A stretch of DNA of 64,000 nt from Escherichia coli (lineage in GTDB: Bacteria; Pseudomonadota; Gammaproteobacteria; Enterobacterales; Enterobacteriaceae): NCBI RefSeq assembly GCF_003018255.1, contig NZ_CP027440.1; one strand, given 5' to 3'. Positions within the stretch are counted from its first letter, which is position 1. Each line of letters starts with the position of its first letter. Below, one piece after another: positions 20,831 to 62,702 of this stretch. Under the pieces are notes generated by a model that searched no databases, was not told the origin of the DNA, and worked only from the letters and a program-made list of their open reading frames with translations. The translations under genes and the position numbers were made by a program.

Positions 20831-22432
20831 TCAGGATACCACTGGCGCAATTTGTAACTGCGCCGACTCATGTCGTGCTACTTCATGCTCTTCAAGGGTA
20901 AATACCGCCACGCGCGACGAAAGATGGTCGGCCTGATTCGCCAGTTGTTCTGTTGCCACCGCCGCTTCTTCTACCAGGGAGGCGTTCTGCTGTGTCACCT
21001 GATCCATCTGGCTGACAGCCTGTGCAACCTGCTCAATCCCCCGCCGTTGTTCTTCCGAGGCCGAAGCAATTTCTCCCATAATGTCGTTCACGCGGGTCAC
21101 CGAACTGACAATATCAGTCATGGTCGCGGCGGCGTTATTCACCAGTTTCGAACCCTGCTGGACACGATTGACTGACTCTTCGATCAGCCCTTTGATCTCT
21201 TTTGCTGCCTGGGCGCTACGGCTGGCAAGATTGCGCACTTCACCTGCCACTACCGCAAAACCACGCCCCTGCTCTCCGGCGCGAGCCGCTTCCACTGCCG
21301 CATTCAGGGCCAGAATATTGGTCTGGAAAGCAATGCCGTCGATAACGCTGATAATGTCGCCAATTTTTTGCGAGCTGGTAGCGATCTCCTGCATGGTGTG
21401 AGTCATGGTACTGACCTGAACACCGCCCGCCTGCGCCGTTGTCGCGGCATTTTTTGCCAGTTCCGACGCCTGTCGTGCGTTATCGGCGTTTTGCCCTACC
21501 GTGGCGGTTAATTGCTCCATACTGGCGGCCGTTTGTGCCAGCGATGCCGCCTGCTGTTCGGTGCGACTTGAGAGATCGTTATTGCCTGCGACAATCTCCG
21601 CGATACCAATGTGCATCTCCTGGCTTCCCTTACGCACATCACTTACCGTCCCACGCAAAGCCTGCTGCATGGTCTTCAGGCTGGCAAAAATGGCGGTGAT
21701 CTCATTGCGACCATACACCGCAATCGGACGTGCCAGATTACCCGCAGCAATGCTGTCAAAATGGCTACCGATAATGGCCAGTGGTTGAACAATCATCTTG
21801 CGCGTCCACCACAGCGCACTGCTGATGTAGATCGCCGCAACAATAATCATGCTGATAAACACCAGCGCCGAAATGTGATAGTTACGCTGGCTTTGCGCAC
21901 TGGCACTTTCCAGCACATGGTTGATCTCCAGCTGCCAGGCCTCAAAGTTAACGTCAAACGCATTCTGTGATTCCTGCACCGGCGCAGTGAGGAAATCCGA
22001 AAGTTGATTACTTTCAAGCCAGGTCGCCTGATGTTCGAGATCGTTGTGCCAGCGGGCAAAACTTTTCTCCGTCTCTTTTTGCAACGCCCTGACGTGCTCG
22101 TTGCCCGCAGTCATCGCCATAAAACTTTTAAACAGCGTGGTGGATTGCGTCAGACTGGCGCGCGCCGTCGTCATCAACGTTTTAATGTCATCCGCCGGAT
22201 AGCTAAGCGCCGTCAGAGTGCCCGCTTTGTTCAGCGCGGTACTGGCCTGTAACATTACCGCCCGAGTTTGCGCTAATGCCGCACGTTGCTGATTGCTCTG
22301 CTCGACCTGATTCAGTCGTTGCAAATCGTCGCGAAATGCCCAAAAAGACATGCCGTTACTGCCAATCTGCAAGATCCCGCAGAGAATCAAAATTAAAAAC
22401 AGCGTGGTCGAAATTCGAATACGATTAAACAT
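20831..22432 (-). CDS. tap: Methyl-accepting chemotaxis protein IV (dipeptide/pyrimidine receptor)
   Basis: 533 aa from MFNRIRISTTLFL; two TM segments, HAMP, conserved MCP signalling domain ([26 protein letters not shown]). Confidence 0.95.
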   Translation of the reverse strand: MFNRIRISTTLFLILILCGILQIGSNGMSFWAFRDDLQRLNQVEQSNQQRAALAQTRAVMLQASTALNKAGTLTALSYPADDIKTLMTTARASLTQSTTLFKSFMAMTAGNEHVRALQKETEKSFARWHNDLEHQATWLESNQLSDFLTAPVQESQNAFDVNFEAWQLEINHVLESASAQSQRNYHISALVFISMIIVAAIYISSALWWTRKMIVQPLAIIGSHFDSIAAGNLARPIAVYGRNEITAIFASLKTMQQALRGTVSDVRKGSQEMHIGIAEIVAGNNDLSSRTEQQAASLAQTAASMEQLTATVGQNADNARQASELAKNAATTAQAGGVQVSTMTHTMQEIATSSQKIGDIISVIDGIAFQTNILALNAAVEAARAGEQGRGFAVVAGEVRNLASRSAQAAKEIKGLIEESVNRVQQGSKLVNNAAATMTDIVSSVTRVNDIMGEIASASEEQRRGIEQVAQAVSQMDQVTQQNASLVEEAAVATEQLANQADHLSSRVAVFTLEEHEVARHESAQLQIAPVVS

Positions 22433-24170: not shown

Positions 24171-24198
24171 TTATCGGCAAGGAAGGGGGAAACTTTAT
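24171..24198 (-). promoter_or_regulatory. Sigma-28 (FliA) class 3 promoter of the tar-tap-cheRBYZ operon
   Basis: Minus-strand reading gives TAAAGTTT-N11-GCCGATAA, a perfect match to the sigma-28 consensus, about 40 bp upstream of the tar start. Confidence 0.85.
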
Positions 24199-28713: not shown

Positions 28714-29292
28714 TTAAACAGCCTGTACTCTCTGTTCATCCAGCAGTTGTGGGATAATATCGGCAGGATTCTGGGAAAGTTTACGTCTTTTTACTGCCCG
28801 GGATGGCGGCTGACATAAGCTGCAGGCAAAGCTGCCAACAGGCTGGTGAGCGTGGGTAATAAAATTGCCGCCGCAGCAGTTGCAGCTGGAAAGTTGCAGT
28901 AATCCACTTTCAACAAACCGCACCAATGTCCAGGCACGGGTTAATGCCAGCAGCGGTCCCTCTTCTGCTTGCGGGCACTGTTCAAGGTATAAACGGTAGG
29001 CTTTGATCACCGCATCGACGCCATTACACAAACCGGTTTTCAGTAAAAACTGCCATGCGTTACAGAACATCGAAGCATGAACGTTTTGTTCCCAGGTCAT
29101 AAACCAGTCGGTTGAGAATGGCAGCATGCCTTTCGGCGGTGGGCTTCCGCGCAGTTCTTTATAGAGTTTTATCAGGCGTCCGCGACTTAACTGTGTTTCG
29201 CTTTCCAGCATCTGCAAACGAGCGCCCAGGGTGATCAATTCCATTGCCAGCTGAATATCCCGCGCTTCCTGAACAATGCTTTTTTCACTCAT
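28714..29292 (-). CDS. flhC: Flagellar master regulator subunit FlhC
   Basis: 192 aa, [27 protein letters not shown]; zinc-binding Cys cluster near the C-terminus. Confidence 0.98.
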
Positions 29293-30860: not shown

Positions 30861-34216
<3,356 letters not shown>

Positions 34217-46023: not shown

Positions 46024-46481
46024 AGGAATATCTCCAGAAATAGGGATAACGCTACTGATAGTTAGTCATTCGTATATTAGCGGTTTTTATTGCAACTTTG
46101 AAACGTTAAAAATGGTGGGTATTCGATTTTTCTCTCGTTTTTGTAAATTCGATTGTCCACAGTTATGGTCACGCCCGTCACCAACGGCTTCCGGGATCGT
46201 TTCACTGTAAGCCCTGCGATGAAATGTGACAAAAATTGACTTTATTCAGCAAAAATGAAAATCAGCCCGCTGAATATGTAACATTAATTAACCCGAACAA
46301 TACGGGCAAAAAACATTCATGATAAAAATATTTATTGGTCATTATATTAACGTATTTTATAGCACTGCCGATATCACGCTCAAAAAACAACCACTGCTAT
46401 TTTTAGCAAAGCTTATGGTATACTCCGCCGCCTTAACATTTTTCACCGCAAATTTTCATTGCAACATGACGAGGAAAATAA

Positions 46482-52452: not shown

Positions 52453-52574
52453 GATAAACAGCCCTGCGTTATATGAGTTATCGGCATGATTATCCGTTTC
52501 TGCAGGGTTTTTAATCGGACGATTAGTGGGTGAAATGAGGGGTTATTTGGGGGTTACCGGTAAATTGCGGGCAG

Positions 52575-52597
52575 AAAAAACCCCGCCGTTGGCGGGG
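52575..52597 (-). terminator. Rho-independent terminator downstream of fliC
   Basis: Stem ccccgcc (52581-52587) / ggcgggg (52591-52597); the plus-strand A-run 52575-52580 gives a T-run after the stem on the minus strand. Confidence 0.7.
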
Positions 52598-52770: not shown

Positions 52771-54510
52771 TTAACCCTGCAGCAGAGACAGAACCTGCTG
52801 CGGTACCTGGTTAGCTTTTGCCAGCACGGAGTTACCGGCCTGCTGGATGATCTGCGCTTTCGACATGTTGGACACTTCGGTCGCATAGTCGGCGTCCTGA
52901 ATACGGGACTGCGCTTCGGACAGGTTGGTAGTGGTGTTGTTCAGGTTGGTGACCGCGGAATCCAGACGGTTTTGCACCGCACCGAGGGAGGAGCGGAATT
53001 TGTCGATGGAGCTGATGGCTTCGTCCAGAGCTTTCAGTGGATCGGCGGTGGTTGCAGCTTTAGTTTCAGCGTCAGTAGTAAAATTACCATCCGCTGAAAC
53101 ATAGACTGCTTTACCTGAACCATTGGTCACAGTTCCGTCTTTTTGCAAAAACAGATTGGTTGTATTATCGGTAGTCAGTGAACCATCAGCTTTGGTGTAA
53201 GCGTCTTCAAAAACTGTACCTGTGTATTGTTGTACTATACCTTTACTATCAACTTTAATATCGCCTGCGCTGGTACCAGTAGCTCCAACATCAACTGTGA
53301 ATCCTGTGGACTTAGTTGCCGATTGAAGAGACTCAGCACTCATTCTTGCATTTGCTACAGTGATTGCACCAGAAGTAGTAGCATCAGTACCGCCATCCAG
53401 AGTGAAGGTTGTTTCATCTTCAGTTGTAATTACCGTAGATACGGCACCCGGTGTGCCTGTTGTATGCCAGTTTTTAGTCAGTGCATCAAGAGTGGCTGCT
53501 TTGACAGTCCCAGCATTGTTTTGAGTGAGGTTACCATCTACGTCAATAAATAGTTCTGAACCATCTTTCGCGGTAATTTTACCGTCGCTAGCCAATACAA
53601 CGTCAATTGACGTAGAACCAATTTTAACGTTTAAGTTAGCAGTATCGCCCGCTTTTGGTGTCAGGAAGGATTGTAACTGAGCACTGTTACTATCACCAGA
53701 ATTTGTACCAGCTGCAATAGTTGCACTATATGTAAAATCACCTGTAGCGCTGTTGTATGTATAATCTGTAGCTGTTGGCGATCCAAAACCATTTGCAATT
53801 GTGGCATTAACTTTTGCGTTATTAGCCAAACTCGCAATTACATCTGCAGCTGTAGATGTTTTCAGGCCTGCGCTAACAGTATAGGTAACTGTACCATTAG
53901 CATCAGCAGTACCTGGAGCCAAGAGTTGAGCTGCTGCCAAATCAGATTTAGTCGCTGCAGTATTAGCCACAGCCCCGCCACCATTCACATTAAACCCACT
54001 CAGCCCCAGCGTATCAGAGTCAATTTTCTTCAGATCAATAGTGATAGTCTGGCCGTCATTCGCACCAACCTGAATTTTCATTGAACCGTCTTTCGCCAGT
54101 ACGTTCACGCCGTTGAACTGGGTCTGGCCAGATACGCGGTCAATTTCGTCCAGACGGGATTTGATTTCGTCCTGAATGGAGTCCAGATCCGAATCGGAGT
54201 TAGTCCCGGTAGAAGCCTGAACCGTCAGTTCACGGATACGCTGTAAGTTGTTGTTGATTTCGGACAGCGCGCCTTCGGTGGTCTGTGCAACGGAGATACC
54301 GTCGTTGGCGTTACGTGCAGCTTGAGTCAGACCTTTAATGTTAGAAGTAAAACGGTTAGCAATCGCCTGACCTGCGGCGTCATCCTTCGCGCTGTTAATA
54401 CGCAAGCCAGAAGACAGACGCTCGATAGAACTCGACAGCGCAGACTGGTTCTTGTTGATATTATTTTGAGTGATCAGCGAGAGGCTGTTGGTATTAATGA
54501 CTTGTGCCAT
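52771..54510 (-). CDS. fliC: Flagellin (H antigen); long allele with a divergent central domain
   Basis: 579 aa; N-terminal about 175 aa (MAQVINTNSLSLITQNNINKNQSALSSSIERLSSGLRINSAKDDAAGQAIANRF...) and C-terminal about 90 aa (...LAKANQVPQQVLSLLQG) are the conserved D0/D1 segments; the central part is Thr/Ala/Gly/Asn-rich and unlike K-12. Confidence 0.97.
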   Translation of the reverse strand: MAQVINTNSLSLITQNNINKNQSALSSSIERLSSGLRINSAKDDAAGQAIANRFTSNIKGLTQAARNANDGISVAQTTEGALSEINNNLQRIRELTVQASTGTNSDSDLDSIQDEIKSRLDEIDRVSGQTQFNGVNVLAKDGSMKIQVGANDGQTITIDLKKIDSDTLGLSGFNVNGGGAVANTAATKSDLAAAQLLAPGTADANGTVTYTVSAGLKTSTAADVIASLANNAKVNATIANGFGSPTATDYTYNSATGDFTYSATIAAGTNSGDSNSAQLQSFLTPKAGDTANLNVKIGSTSIDVVLASDGKITAKDGSELFIDVDGNLTQNNAGTVKAATLDALTKNWHTTGTPGAVSTVITTEDETTFTLDGGTDATTSGAITVANARMSAESLQSATKSTGFTVDVGATGTSAGDIKVDSKGIVQQYTGTVFEDAYTKADGSLTTDNTTNLFLQKDGTVTNGSGKAVYVSADGNFTTDAETKAATTADPLKALDEAISSIDKFRSSLGAVQNRLDSAVTNLNNTTTNLSEAQSRIQDADYATEVSNMSKAQIIQQAGNSVLAKANQVPQQVLSLLQG

Positions 54511-54586
54511 GATTCGTTATCCTATATTGCAAGTCGTTGATTACGTATTGGGTTTCCACCCGTCGGCTCAATCGCCGTCAACCCTG

Positions 54587-54613
54587 TTATCGTCTGTCGT
54601 AAAACAACCTTTA
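54587..54613 (-). promoter_or_regulatory. Sigma-28 class 3 promoter of fliC
   Basis: Minus-strand reading gives TAAAGGTT-N11-GACGATAA, a close match to the sigma-28 consensus, about 80 bp upstream of the fliC ATG. Confidence 0.8.
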
Positions 54614-54705
54614 GAATTTTTTTCACAAACAGCCATTTTTTGTTAGTCGCCGAAATACTCTTTTCTCTGCCCCTTATTCCCGCTATTAAAAAAAACAATT
54701 AAACG

Positions 54706-54732
54706 TAAACTTTGCGCAATTCAGGCCGATAA
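54706..54732 (+). promoter_or_regulatory. Sigma-28 class 3 promoter of fliDST
   Basis: TAAACTTT-N11-GCCGATAA on the plus strand, 44 bp upstream of the fliD ATG. Confidence 0.85.
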
Positions 54733-54775
54733 CCCCGGTATTCGTTTTACGTGTCGAAAGATAAAAGGAAATCGC

Positions 54776-56182
54776 ATGGCAAGTATTTCATCGCTGGGAG
54801 TCGGGTCAGGTCTGGATTTAAGTTCAATCCTTGATAGCCTCACCGCCGCGCAAAAAGCGACGCTAACCCCTATTTCAAATCAGCAATCGTCGTTTACCGC
54901 TAAACTTAGCGCCTACGGTACGCTGAAAAGCGCGCTGACGACTTTCCAGACCGCCAATACTGCATTGTCTAAAGCCGATCTTTTTTCCGCCACCAGCACT
55001 ACCAGCAGCACCACCGCGTTCAGTGCCACCACTGCGGGTAACGCCATCGCCGGGAAATACACCATCAGCGTCACCCATCTGGCGCAGGCGCAAACCCTGA
55101 CCACGCGCACCACCAGAGACGATACGAAAACGGCGATCGCCACCAGCGACAGTAAACTCATCATTCAACAAGGCGGCGACAAAGATCCGATTACCATTGA
55201 TATCAGCGCGGCTAACTCATCGTTAAGCGGGATCCGTGATGCTATCAACAACGCAAAAGCGGGCGTAAGCGCAAGCATCATTAACGTGGGTAACGGTGAA
55301 TATCGTCTGTCAGTCACATCAAATGACACCGGCCTTGATAATGCGATGACACTCTCGGTCAGCGGTGATGATGCGCTACAAAGTTTTATGGGCTATGACG
55401 CCAGTGCCAGCAGCAACGGCATGGAGGTCTCGGTCGCCGCCCAGAATGCGCAGCTGACGGTCAACAACGTCGCCATTGAGAACAGCAGCAACACCATCAG
55501 CGACGCGCTGGAAAACATCACCCTGAACCTGAACGATGTCACCACGGGCAACCAGACGCTAACCATCACTCAGGACACCTCCAAAGCGCAAACGGCGATT
55601 AAAGACTGGGTGAATGCCTATAACTCGCTAATAGATACCTTCAGCAGCCTGACCAAATACACCGCCGTAGATGCGGGAGCTGATAGCCAGAGTTCTAGCA
55701 ATGGCGCACTGCTCGGCGACTCCACGTTGCGGACGATTCAGACGCAGTTGAAATCGATGCTGAGTAATACCGTTAGTTCTTCCAACTATAAAACGTTGGC
55801 GCAGATTGGTATCACGACCGATCCCAGCGATGGCAAACTGGAACTGGATGCCGACAAACTCACCGCTGCACTGAAAAAAGATGCCAGCGGCGTAGGTGCA
55901 TTGATTGTTGGCGATGGTAAAAAAACCGGCATCACGACCACCATCGGCAGCAACCTGACCAGTTGGCTTTCGACAACAGGCATTATTAAAGCCGCTACCG
56001 ATGGCGTTAGTAAGACCCTGAATAAGTTAACCAAAGACTACAACGCCGCCAGCGATCGCATTGATGCGCAGGTCGCGCGCTACAAAGAGCAATTTACCCA
56101 ACTGGACGTTTTAATGACCTCGTTAAACAGCACCAGCAGCTACTTAACGCAGCAGTTCGAAAACAACAGTAATTCCAAGTAA
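54776..56182 (+). CDS. fliD: Flagellar filament cap protein FliD
   Basis: 468 aa, MASISSLGVGSGLDLSSILDSLTAAQKATL N-terminus. Confidence 0.97.
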   Translation: MASISSLGVGSGLDLSSILDSLTAAQKATLTPISNQQSSFTAKLSAYGTLKSALTTFQTANTALSKADLFSATSTTSSTTAFSATTAGNAIAGKYTISVTHLAQAQTLTTRTTRDDTKTAIATSDSKLIIQQGGDKDPITIDISAANSSLSGIRDAINNAKAGVSASIINVGNGEYRLSVTSNDTGLDNAMTLSVSGDDALQSFMGYDASASSNGMEVSVAAQNAQLTVNNVAIENSSNTISDALENITLNLNDVTTGNQTLTITQDTSKAQTAIKDWVNAYNSLIDTFSSLTKYTAVDAGADSQSSSNGALLGDSTLRTIQTQLKSMLSNTVSSSNYKTLAQIGITTDPSDGKLELDADKLTAALKKDASGVGALIVGDGKKTGITTTIGSNLTSWLSTTGIIKAATDGVSKTLNKLTKDYNAASDRIDAQVARYKEQFTQLDVLMTSLNSTSSYLTQQFENNSNSK

Positions 56183-56206
56183 TCAATATTCATCGGGAGA
56201 CAGGTC

Positions 56207-56617
56207 ATGTACGCGGCAAAAGGCACCCAGGCCTATGCACAAATTGGCGTCGAAAGCGCCGTAATGAGCGCCAGCCAGCAACAGCTGGTCACCATGCTAT
56301 TTGATGGAGTGCTGAGCGCACTGGTTAGAGCGCGCCTGTTTATGCAGGACAACAATCAGCAAGGCAAAGGCGTCTCTTTGTCAAAAGCGATCAACATCAT
56401 TGAGAACGGGCTGCGGGTGAGTCTTGATGAAGAGAGCAAAGACGAACTAACCCAAAACTTGATTGCTCTTTATAGCTATATGGTCAGGCGCTTGCTGCAA
56501 GCCAATTTACGCAACGATGTCTCCGCAGTCGAAGAAGTGGAAGCATTAATGCGCAATATTGCCGATGCCTGGAAAGAGTCTTTACTCTCCCCTTCTTTGA
56601 TTCAGGACCCAGACTGA
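56207..56617 (+). CDS. fliS: Flagellin-specific export chaperone FliS
   Basis: 136 aa ORF directly after fliD. Confidence 0.97.
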
Positions 56618-56982
56618 TGAACAATGCACCGCATTTGTATTTCGCCTGGCAACAACTCGTCGAAAAAAGTCAGCTCATGTTACGCCTGGCGACAGAAGAA
56701 CAATGGGACGAACTCATCGCCAGCGAAATGGCGTATGTGAATGCGGTGCAGGAGATCGCACACCTGACTGAAGAGGTTGCCCCGTCCACCACGATGCAGG
56801 AGCAGCTCCGCCCGATGCTGCGCCTGATTCTCGACAACGAAAGCAAGGTAAAGCAGTTATTACAGATTCGGATGGATGAACTGGCGAAACTGGTCGGTCA
56901 GTCATCGGTGCAAAAATCGGTGTTAAGTGCCTATGGCGATCAGGGTGGCTTTGTGCTGGCTCCGCAGGATAACCTCTTTTGA
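56617..56982 (+). CDS. fliT: FliD chaperone and anti-FlhDC factor FliT
   Basis: 121 aa; start overlaps the fliS stop. Confidence 0.95.
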
Positions 56983-59180: not shown

Positions 59181-60386
59181 ATGTCATGGCAGCAATTCAA
59201 ACACGCCTGGTTGATTAAATTCTGGGCCCCCATCCCTGCGGTCATCGCGGCGGGTATTCTCTCCACTTACTACTTTGGCATCACTGGCACCTTTTGGGCT
59301 GTCACGGGTGAATTTACCCGCTGGGGCGGTCAGCTTCTGCAGCTGTTCGGCGTCCATGCTGAAGAGTGGGGTTATTTTAAAATTATCCATCTGGAAGGAT
59401 CGCCATTAACCCGCATCGACGGCATGATGATCCTCGGTATGTTTGGCGGCTGCTTTGCTGCAGCGCTGTGGGCCAACAATGTCAAACTACGCATGCCACG
59501 CAGCCGTATCCGCATTATGCAGGCCATTATTGGCGGCATTATCGCTGGTTTTGGCGCGCGTCTGGCAATGGGCTGTAACCTGGCGGCGTTCTTTACCGGC
59601 ATTCCTCAGTTCTCGCTGCATGCCTGGTTCTTTGCCATCGCCACTGCCATTGGTTCATGGTTTGGCGCGCGCTTTACCCTGCTGCCCATCTTCCGTATTC
59701 CCGTGAAAATGCAGAAAGTTTCTGCCGCCTCACCGCTGACGCAAAAACCGGATCAGGCGCGGCGTCGTTTTCGTCTCGGGATGCTGGTCTTTTTCGGCAT
59801 GCTGGGCTGGGCGCTGCTCACGGCGATGAACCAACCAAAACTGGGGCTGGCAATGCTGTTTGGCGTCGGCTTTGGTTTACTGATTGAACGTGCGCAAATC
59901 TGCTTTACTTCGGCGTTCCGCGATATGTGGATCACCGGACGTACCCATATGGCGAAAGCAATCATTATCGGTATGGCGGTGAGTGCCATCGGGATCTTCA
60001 GTTACGTACAGTTAGGCGTTGAACCTAAAATCATGTGGGCGGGACCAAATGCGGTAATTGGTGGTTTACTTTTTGGTTTTGGCATCGTGCTGGCAGGCGG
60101 CTGCGAAACCGGCTGGATGTACCGCGCGGTAGAAGGCCAGGTGCACTACTGGTGGGTCGGTCTGGGCAACGTGATCGGCTCAACGATTCTGGCGTATTAC
60201 TGGGATGATTTCGCTCCGGCGCTGGCCACCGACTGGGACAAAATCAACCTGCTGAAAACCTTTGGTCCGATGGGTGGCCTGCTGGTGACATATTTGCTGT
60301 TGTTTGCAGCTCTAATGTTGATTATCGGCTGGGAAAAACGCTTCTTCCGCCGTGCGGCACCGCAGATTGCTAAGGAGATCGCATGA
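59181..60386 (+). CDS. yedE: YeeE/YedE-family inner membrane transporter (proposed selenium/sulfur compound transport)
   Basis: 401 aa polytopic membrane protein with duplicated conserved Cys-containing segments (GGCETGW); operonic with the TusA-like yedF. Confidence 0.88.
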   Translation: MSWQQFKHAWLIKFWAPIPAVIAAGILSTYYFGITGTFWAVTGEFTRWGGQLLQLFGVHAEEWGYFKIIHLEGSPLTRIDGMMILGMFGGCFAAALWANNVKLRMPRSRIRIMQAIIGGIIAGFGARLAMGCNLAAFFTGIPQFSLHAWFFAIATAIGSWFGARFTLLPIFRIPVKMQKVSAASPLTQKPDQARRRFRLGMLVFFGMLGWALLTAMNQPKLGLAMLFGVGFGLLIERAQICFTSAFRDMWITGRTHMAKAIIIGMAVSAIGIFSYVQLGVEPKIMWAGPNAVIGGLLFGFGIVLAGGCETGWMYRAVEGQVHYWWVGLGNVIGSTILAYYWDDFAPALATDWDKINLLKTFGPMGGLLVTYLLLFAALMLIIGWEKRFFRRAAPQIAKEIA

Positions 60387-61503: not shown

Positions 61504-61983
61504 ATGTTCACGATTAAAACAGATGATCTCACCCATCCAGCAGTGCAAGCATTAGTGGCTTACCATATTTCCGGCATGCTGCAGCAGTCTCCCCCCGAAA
61601 GTAGTCATGCTTTAGATGTGCAAAAATTACGTAACCCGAAAGTGACATTCTGGTCAGTATGGGAAGGCGAACAACTCGCAGGAATTGGTGCGCTGAAGTT
61701 GCTGGATGATAAACATGGCGAACTGAAATCAATGCGTACCGCGCCAAATTATTTACGTCGGGGTGTCGCCAGTCTGATTTTACGCCACATTTTGCAGGTC
61801 GCCCATGACAGATGCCTTCATCGCCTGAGCTTAGAAACGGGTACACAGGCTGGATTTACGGCCTGCCATCAACTTTATTTGAAACATGGATTCGTTGATT
61901 GCGAACCGTTTGCTGATTATCAACTTGATCCGCACAGTCGATTTTTGTCATTGACGCTATGCGAAAATAATGAATTGCCATGA
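61504..61983 (+). CDS. yedL: GNAT-family N-acetyltransferase YedL
   Basis: 159 aa with acetyl-CoA binding motif (RRGVASLILRHIL). Confidence 0.88.
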   Translation: MFTIKTDDLTHPAVQALVAYHISGMLQQSPPESSHALDVQKLRNPKVTFWSVWEGEQLAGIGALKLLDDKHGELKSMRTAPNYLRRGVASLILRHILQVAHDRCLHRLSLETGTQAGFTACHQLYLKHGFVDCEPFADYQLDPHSRFLSLTLCENNELP

Positions 61984-61990
61984 GCCAGAC

Positions 61991-62032
61991 GCAGCACATT
62001 CTTGCATTCGACGTGCTGCGCCTTTATTTATT
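61991..62032 (+). terminator. Rho-independent terminator downstream of yedL
   Basis: Stem gcagcac (61991-61997) / gtgctgc (62013-62019) followed by a T-rich tract cctttatttatt. Confidence 0.65.
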
Positions 62033-62387
62033 ATCAGCCGCAAATGTCTTGTCCTTAGACGCTCTTTCCACATGCGCCACAAGAAACCTCTATTCCAGTG
62101 ACACAATTATGCCTGATTATTTCCCTAGCCCGGAATATGAATAAAAACATCAAATAAGATGAAATTATCAAAATATTAATGTTGCGTCTGAGGTCGTAAC
62201 AACATCCGACGTGGTGATATGTCAAATGAGACACTCTGATGGTCAAAGGGTTTATCGCGTTTACAGATCGTGGATGGCAGAAAACTTTCAGAATCAGGTT
62301 TCCATTTTAAACCAGAAATTAAGTGAGTTTGTCCCATCCATGCCCCACGCGGTGAGATCGGATGTAATCAACAACAGGTTACAAAAC

Positions 62388-62702
62388 CTACACCTGCATG
62401 CTCATCACTTCCTGATACGCCGCCACCAGCTTATTACGCACCTGAATCCCCATTTGCATTGAAACTGAGGCTTTTTGCATATCGGTCATCACATCGTTTA
62501 ACGCCACGCCGGGTTCACCGAGAGTGAATTTTTCTGCCTGCGTGCGGGCGGCTGTTTGTGTATCGCTTATGCGATCGAGCGCGGCGTGCAGCTGCCCGGC
62601 AAAACTAATGGTCGGTTGTGGCAGTGATTCCTGTGTACGCGCACTCATCGCCGTAGCCTGTAACTGGCTGATAACCCCTTCAATCCCCTGTATCGCTGAC
62701 AT
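62388..62702 (-). CDS. fliE: Flagellar hook-basal body protein FliE
   Basis: ORF 62388-62732; start placed at [22 protein letters not shown] (104 aa). Confidence 0.96.

Follow-up and report, generated by a model that had tools for sequence, protein, structure and literature searches.

The fliC–fliD control region described here belongs to a 64,000-nt stretch of Escherichia coli DNA (contig NZ_CP027440.1, assembly GCF_003018255.1), which we analysed as a whole and call the window. The window has the same orientation as the MG1655 chromosome. Its gene order runs from yebC through flhEAB, cheZYBR, tap, tar, cheWA, motBA, flhCD, uspC, otsAB and araHGF to uvrY, sdiA, tcyJ, fliZ, fliA, fliC, fliDST and amyA, and ends with fliE and fliF. 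Read directly from the sequence, the divergent region between the fliC and fliD start codons occupies positions 54511–54775, which confirms the 265 bp given for it in a preliminary description of this DNA. The genes on either side are the following.

52771–54510, minus strand: fliC, intact, encoding a 579-aa flagellin of the FliC/FljB family; start codon at 54510
54776–56182, plus strand: fliD, intact, 468 aa; start codon at 54776
56207–56617, plus strand: fliS, intact
56617–56982, plus strand: fliT, intact

The fliDST operon therefore spans 54776–56982 on the plus strand. The 579-aa flagellin differs from the 498-aa type of K-12 and represents a different H-antigen allele; NCBIfam gave no name for its H type. 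All flagellar and chemotaxis open reading frames in the window have their K-12 length and contain no internal stop, and the class 3 units among them (fliC, fliDST, tar-tap-cheRBYZ, motAB-cheAW and fliAZ) are intact throughout. In the closest database genome, JNE23-011, the fliC–fliD region is 100% identical to that of the window and tap carries an internal stop (L010, 20834–22435). We considered this pseudogene as an objection to the word 'intact' and dropped it, because tap of the window is itself intact (20831–22432, 533 aa). The further units flgKL, flgMN, tsr, aer, trg, ycgR and pdeH lie beyond the window. The earlier statement that the promoters confirm an intact class 3 flagellar regulon is thus borne out for the reading frames of the window and does not extend to the units outside it; as a confirmation it overreaches, because promoter motifs do not prove expression.

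The literature quotes the FliA (sigma-28) consensus as TAAAGTTT-n11-GCCGATAA. Matches in the fliC–fliD region, together with the other sigma-28 promoters of the window, are listed below.

54613–54606, minus strand: fliC −35 element, TAAAGGTT, 7/8 matches to TAAAGTTT
54594–54587, minus strand: fliC −10 element, GACGATAA, 7/8 matches to GCCGATAA; 76 nt to the fliC ATG
54706–54713, plus strand: fliD −35 element, TAAACTTT, 7/8 matches
54725–54732, plus strand: fliD −10 element, GCCGATAA, 8/8 matches; 43 nt to the fliD ATG
24197–24171, minus strand: tar-tap-cheRBYZ promoter, a perfect TAAAGTTT-N11-GCCGATAA; 31 nt upstream of the tar ATG (24139)
28756–28783, minus strand: promoter of motAB-cheAW (and of MotR) inside flhC, TAAACTTT-N11-GCCGATAT
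52477–52504, minus strand: autoregulatory fliA promoter, with a GCCGATAA −10 element and a poor −35 element (TGCAGAAA); identical to the ChIP site of K-12

The complete fliC site reads TAAAGGTT-N11-GACGATAA (54613–54587, minus) and the complete fliD site TAAACTTT-N11-GCCGATAA (54706–54732, plus). Over the 16 octamer bases, and always with an 11-nt spacer, consensus matches number 16/16 at tar, 15/16 at fliD and 14/16 at fliC, and each of these three sites is correctly oriented a short distance upstream of late flagellar or chemotaxis genes. The claim of two near-consensus divergent FliA promoters therefore holds. The tar site, which had been placed at 24171–24198 with its strand unstated, is indeed a perfect consensus but lies on the minus strand and is one base shorter, ending at 24197. 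'Back-to-back' is right for a divergent pair and loose as a term, since the two −35 elements stand 92 bp apart with further conserved control sequence between them. The fliC/fliD region shows every class 3 feature that sequence can address.

These motifs are the known K-12 FliA promoters of fliC and fliDST, and as such have already been described. Fitzgerald, Bonocora and Wade 2014 (PMC4183435, Table 2) located FliA by ChIP-seq in motile MG1655, with peak scores given as fold above threshold. The fliC site (TAAAGGTTGTTTTACGACAGACGATAAC in K-12) has the highest score, 110, and fliC RNA drops from 2319 in the wild type to 11 without fliA, a dependence of ∼200-fold (PMC4183435). The tar site (TAAAGTTTCCCCCCTCCTTGCCGATAAC) scores 57, with RNA falling from 251 to 0, and the fliDST site (TAAACTTTGCGCAATTCAGACCGATAAC) scores 43, with a change from 633 to 356 that is not significant (PMC4183435); motA, fliA and a site internal to otsA score 101, 91 and 2, respectively (PMC4183435). 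The window and K-12 share the fliC 28-mer TAAAGGTTGTTTTACGACAGACGATAAC at the same distance from the ATG, and the whole 265-bp region differs from MG1655 at only two positions, C54626 and G54725, both A in K-12. At the fliD site the −35 element, spacer and position are the same, and the single different base changes the −10 element from ACCGATAA in K-12 to GCCGATAA here; G54725 thus gives the window a full-consensus −10. The tar and motA promoters occupy their K-12 positions with identical octamers, and the tar spacer carries one C-to-T change.

Sigma-28 RNA polymerase has been shown to transcribe from, bind and footprint fliCp and tarp in vitro (Shi et al., bioRxiv 10.1101/2020.01.02.893370). 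We rejected control of the fliC/fliD region by CRP because CRP did not bind the fliC/fliD fragment in vitro. By analogy with the identical or near-identical K-12 sequences, the promoters of the window would be expected to behave in vivo as class 3 promoters, except for the weak FliA dependence of fliDST, and we infer that they are active in this particular strain.

Transcription of fliDST also has a second origin. The segment between the two −35 elements contains the following features.

54614–54624: A/T tract GAATTTTTTTC adjoining the fliC −35 element on its upstream side; column conservation 0.7–0.9 in 47 sequences
54638–54660: two blocks conserved across genera, TTTTGTTAGTC (54638–54648) and GAAATACTC (54652–54660), at −59 to −37 of the class 2 start
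54684–54689, plus strand: TATTAA, the −10 hexamer of the fliD class 2 (sigma-70, FlhDC-dependent) promoter, at −13 to −8 of the start; conserved across genera
54697, plus strand: FliA-independent fliD start mapped in K-12, 79 nt upstream of the fliD ATG

The start is entered as TSS 2001817 (NC_000913.2; 2,003,793 in NC_000913.3) in the supplement of Kim et al. 2012, where its 51-nt upstream string equals window positions 54647–54697 exactly; start and TATTAA hexamer are identical to those of K-12. The fliD sigma-28 −35 element follows it at a distance of 9 nt, and the predicted sigma-28 start at 43 nt. ChIP-qPCR in K-12 has placed FlhDC at the fliDST promoter, and deletion of either flhD or flhC lowers fliDST RNA from 633 to 3. 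In fliD fusions, FliA dependence has been described as masked by the strong FlhDC-activated sigma-70 promoters just upstream. The combination of a class 2 FlhDC/sigma-70 promoter with a class 3 sigma-28 promoter is known for fliDST from E. coli K-12 and Salmonella. The operon is therefore a dual class 2 and class 3 unit rather than a purely class 3 one: the class 3 assignment made earlier is right in that a sigma-28 promoter is present, and incomplete in view of the class 2 start at 54697 and the weak effect of fliA in K-12.

The 92 bp between the −35 elements hold the class 2 promoter and, presumably, its FlhDC site. The blocks at 54638–54660 are a candidate FlhD4C2 contact region, and the A/T tract at 54614–54624 may belong to the far end of that FlhDC site or serve as an UP element. 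A scan with the FlhDC box consensus AAYGSN2-3AAATARCG yielded 3-mismatch matches only, and we assign no specific box. The published FlhDC motif is itself described as low-scoring and degenerate. Most of the Enterobacteriaceae loci examined keep the −35 to −35 distance (91–95 bp in 39 of the 53 loci discussed below), and the conserved blocks reach the fliC −35 element. The segment of ∼92 bp could conceivably act as one shared nucleoprotein control unit, in which the FlhD4C2 and sigma-70 RNA polymerase of the fliD class 2 promoter physically cooperate, or else interfere, with sigma-28 RNA polymerase at the fliC and fliD class 3 promoters. We regard this as improbable; if true, it would couple the early-to-late switch of two divergent genes.

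Conservation was assessed at two depths, within E. coli and between genera. A survey of 5426 complete E. coli genomes resolved three alleles of the control region.

Class A, ∼3186 genomes, including the window and MG1655: at least 95% identical to the window
Class B, ∼1315 genomes, including IMT5155, and represented by loci L003, L004 and L006: ∼70% identical to the window
Class C, ∼870 genomes, including ECC-1470 and FORC_028, and represented by loci L007 and L008: intergenic DNA with no detectable blastn match to the window

When the three alleles are aligned, the 32 octamer positions are 100% identical between A and B and 88% identical between A and C and between B and C. Identity is 27–36% in the two 11-nt spacers and 41–64% in the remainder of the intergenic DNA. 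The fliD −35 element is invariant across the three classes, and the fliC promoter of class C, TAAAGTTC-N11-GCCGATAC, is a different and equally good variant in the same place. The fliC–fliD control region of E. coli thus exists as three deeply diverged alleles in which the promoter cores are still kept.

For comparison between genera, loci were anchored on the first 20 nt of fliC, independently of the promoters, with one genome per species (74 loci). A divergent fliD homologue accompanies the flagellin start in 59 loci from other genera, and 53 of these carry both motifs. The octamer lies 66–80 nt from the flagellin ATG in 52 of these 53 loci (94 nt in the remaining one) and 35–43 nt from the fliD ATG. 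In the loci from other genera, the octamer columns hardly vary, while the spacer columns are ∼30–60% conserved; the −35 element is near-invariant in 35 distinct flagellin-directed motifs for fliC and in 40 distinct motifs for fliD. This is the pattern that would be expected of two-block sigma-factor sites under selection. The non-consensus A of the fliC −10 element GACGATAA is kept in most Enterobacteriaceae loci, and this deviation from consensus itself looks to be under selection.

The class C fliC promoter, spacer included, is identical to that of loci of Salmonella enterica arizonae/diarizonae and Citrobacter (L037, L075, L041, L048), and the class B fliC promoter, again with its spacer, to that of Pseudocitrobacter loci (L027, L068). 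The great divergence of the alleles, and the spacer-level match of two of them to other genera, suggest exchange of the whole fliC–promoter–fliD cassette between genera as a unit. Enterobacterial flagellin starts were also found on contigs labelled as a 'Collinsella' metagenome-assembled genome (L064, L065) and 'Staphylococcus lugdunensis' (L080); the promoter motifs of L064 and L065 are identical to those of E. coli class A and class C. Such starts in non-flagellated Gram-positive taxa are probably assembly or binning contamination.

We consider it close to certain that this is the divergent fliC/fliDST regulatory region, with sigma-28 promoters in both directions and an additional FlhD4C2/sigma-70 class 2 promoter for fliDST; the motifs, their geometry and conservation, their identity to FliA-bound K-12 sites and the class 2 start bear on this directly. 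In the mechanism that we propose, FliA-RNA polymerase would recognize TAAAGGTT-N11-GACGATAA on the minus strand, with fliC transcription starting ∼7–8 nt past the octamer, near 54579, and TAAACTTT-N11-GCCGATAA on the plus strand, with fliDST transcription starting near 54740. FlgM keeps FliA inactive until the hook-basal body is complete, so that both sigma-28 promoters would fire late, as class 3 promoters. For fliC the sigma-28 promoter is the sole input. For fliDST the class 2 promoter (start 54697) would provide an early supply of FliD, FliS and FliT, and the sigma-28 promoter a late or back-up input. The importance of this reading beyond annotation is small: in the part of the regulon covered by the window, the strain has the standard late-flagellar promoter set and intact genes.

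The most serious alternative concerns the weight of the two fliDST inputs. The fliD sigma-28 site could be minor or conditional, with fliDST driven essentially by the class 2 start at 54697 and sigma-28 used only in situations such as filament repair or swarming. We hold this to be a real possibility, though not the one that we favour. It agrees with the modest, non-significant loss of K-12 fliDST RNA without fliA, set against its near-complete loss without flhD or flhC, with the lack of FliA dependence in lacZ fusions to the fliD region, and with the fact that the only mapped fliD start we retrieved is the class 2 one. However, FliA occupies the fliD site in vivo with a peak score of 43, and fliA overexpression in an flhD deletion brings fliD expression back to the wild-type level or higher. 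The fliD motif is conserved as strongly as the fliC motif, across alleles and genera, which argues for selection.

The K-12 results on which a minor role would rest also come from a minority allele. The fliD 60-mer of the window occurs identically in 2552 complete genomes and the K-12 version in 360, and the K-12 −10 element ACCGATAA (L001 2322 in MG1655) scores 3 bits below the GCCGATAA of the window. Because this allele is both rarer and weaker, K-12 data may under-represent the FliA contribution to fliDST in most E. coli, and the small contribution measured there under the conditions used may not transfer to them. We retain the dual reading of fliDST, with a sigma-28 promoter in addition to the class 2 promoter.

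A second alternative is that the octamers are conserved mainly for another purpose, as sites of another factor, as part of the FlhDC site or as part of an mRNA leader. FlhDC footprints at class 2 promoters are expected at about −88 to −28, and that of the fliD class 2 promoter would accordingly reach the fliC −35 element. RNA-guided repression offers a further candidate: in Enterobacter, TldR–guide RNA complexes encoded by prophages target the −10 element and spacer of the host fliC promoter through GTTAT, the target-adjacent motif of these repressors, and shut off fliC (bioRxiv 10.1101/2023.11.30.569447). The conserved bases are, however, exactly the sigma-28 recognition positions, at exactly 11-nt spacing and with variable bases between them, and fliC depends on FliA by about two orders of magnitude in K-12. 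We judge the alternative to be very unlikely compared with conservation as sigma-28 sites. A GTTAT motif is present at 54585–54589, where it overlaps the fliC −10 element. The TldR-targeted fliC promoters of Enterobacter (Wiegand et al.) have the same architecture, with GTTAT over the −10; the likeness is one of target sites only.

The possibility of chance matches was evaluated both by consensus and by weight matrix. With up to 3 mismatches, the sigma-28 consensus finds six matches in the window where 0.60 would be expected, and not one shuffled sequence out of 100 contained that many. The six are tar, motA (inside flhC), an otsA-internal match (31990), a yecU-internal match (46348), fliC and fliD. 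By an analytic estimate that assumes equal base frequencies, a match with up to 2 mismatches would arise by chance with a probability of ∼1.4e-4 per 265 bp, both strands included. The matrix was built from 44 published FliA ChIP-seq motifs, all outside the window, and gives 26.9 bits for tar, 22.4 for motA, 20.6 for fliD, 15.9 for the fliA promoter and 12.6 for fliC. Per window, random sequence of the same composition is expected to yield ∼3.3 matches that exceed 12 bits and 0.4 that exceed 15. In this weight-matrix scan, which the preliminary description had proposed as a check, tar and fliD stand out by score alone, and fliC does not, since over the whole window a score such as its own is expected by chance. 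The fliC site is significant because its position and orientation within the 265 bp are correct and its motif is conserved.

Several other matches were recorded in the window. The match inside yecU (46348–46375, plus strand), ∼135 nt upstream of yecF, reads TAACGTATTTTATAGCACTGCCGATATC, with a score of 17.5 bits; MG1655 has the identical sequence, but the 52 published FliA ChIP sites do not include it, so that it is probably an unbound look-alike. A 15.4-bit match in yedE (60321–60348, minus strand) is likewise identical in MG1655 and is not a ChIP site, and a 16.1-bit match between yedL and fliE (62030–62057, minus strand) lies in sequence unlike that of K-12 (57/66 bases matching). The match inside otsA (31990–32017, plus strand, antisense) is the weak intragenic K-12 FliA site of peak score 2, present here unchanged. 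The ChIP-derived matrix thus under-scores the strongest real FliA promoter, that of fliC, and over-scores unbound sites, so that sigma-28 calls need context and conservation besides score. That the fliC and fliD motifs are chance matches in AT-rich intergenic DNA, with transcription starting elsewhere, is effectively refuted: the fliC score and the unbound 15–17-bit matches at 46348 and 60321 would fit such a reading, but the tenfold excess of consensus matches, the correct orientation of both motifs in one 265-bp region, the conservation of octamers and not of spacers, and the binding of FliA to identical sequences in K-12 do not.

The sigma-28 starts were predicted from promoter geometry.

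54578–54583, minus strand: predicted fliC sigma-28 start, best guess G54579 or A54578, giving a 5′UTR of ∼69 nt
54738–54743, plus strand: predicted fliD sigma-28 start, best guess A54740, giving a 5′UTR of ∼36 nt

The corresponding NC_000913.3 positions are ∼2,003,674–2,003,679 for fliC and ∼2,003,834–2,003,839 for fliD. In the sigma-28 RNA polymerase structure the −10 bases are C-13, G-12 and A-11, which places the octamer at −15 to −8. The aer transcript starts 6 bp after its octamer, and starts at flagellar FliA promoters lie 18–22 bp from the motif centre; the predicted ranges follow from these three constraints. The preliminary description had placed the starts 7 to 10 nt downstream of the −10 elements, which is compatible with the ranges given here.

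The Kim et al. 2012 supplement lists no sigma-28 start for fliC, fliD, tar or flgM; in this region it has, besides the class 2 start of fliD, a 'fliC' start that lies antisense within fliD. Its silence on the fliC and fliD sigma-28 starts is uninformative, because the tar and flgM starts are missing as well. Cho 2014 gives expression values only, Ettwiller 2016 has no coordinates matching the two starts, Mendoza-Vargas 2009 has an antisense fliD entry only, and no fliC or fliD sigma-28 start was found in Adams 2021. Searches for the promoter strings in full-text literature returned knockout primers only.

Single-sequence folds place two tandem hairpins at the start of the predicted fliC mRNA.

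54577–54564, minus strand: first hairpin of the predicted fliC leader
54561–54550, minus strand: second hairpin of the predicted fliC leader

Both stems are present in 12 of 14 folded orthologous leaders from different genera, where compensatory changes keep them (for example CGGC/GCCG versus ACGGU/ACCGU, and GGGU/ACCC versus GGGC/GCCC). RNAalifold applied to a MAFFT alignment of the fliC leaders returned almost no structure; single-sequence folds were used because the alignment misaligned the hairpin arms. Rfam gave no family between 50000 and 58000, the leader hairpins included.

Downstream of fliC, at 52581–52597 on the minus strand, the window contains a strong terminator-like hairpin, CCCCGCC-AAC-GGCGGGG, followed by a T-run. 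Its position is that expected for the 3′ end of FliX, an sRNA from the fliC 3′UTR that is annotated in MG1655. In the yedL–fliE interval (window ∼61980–62390, compared with L012 3580–5200), JNE23-011 has only a short integrase remnant, in place of which MG1655 has the yedN pseudogene and intG. Insertion elements interrupt the fliC–fliD locus in two other strains: in 23CRST049 (L005 2584–2710) an IS66-family element replaces the fliD promoter and gene start, and in LP5-1 (L009 3113–4270), where fliZ is a pseudogene as well, IS5 splits fliC.
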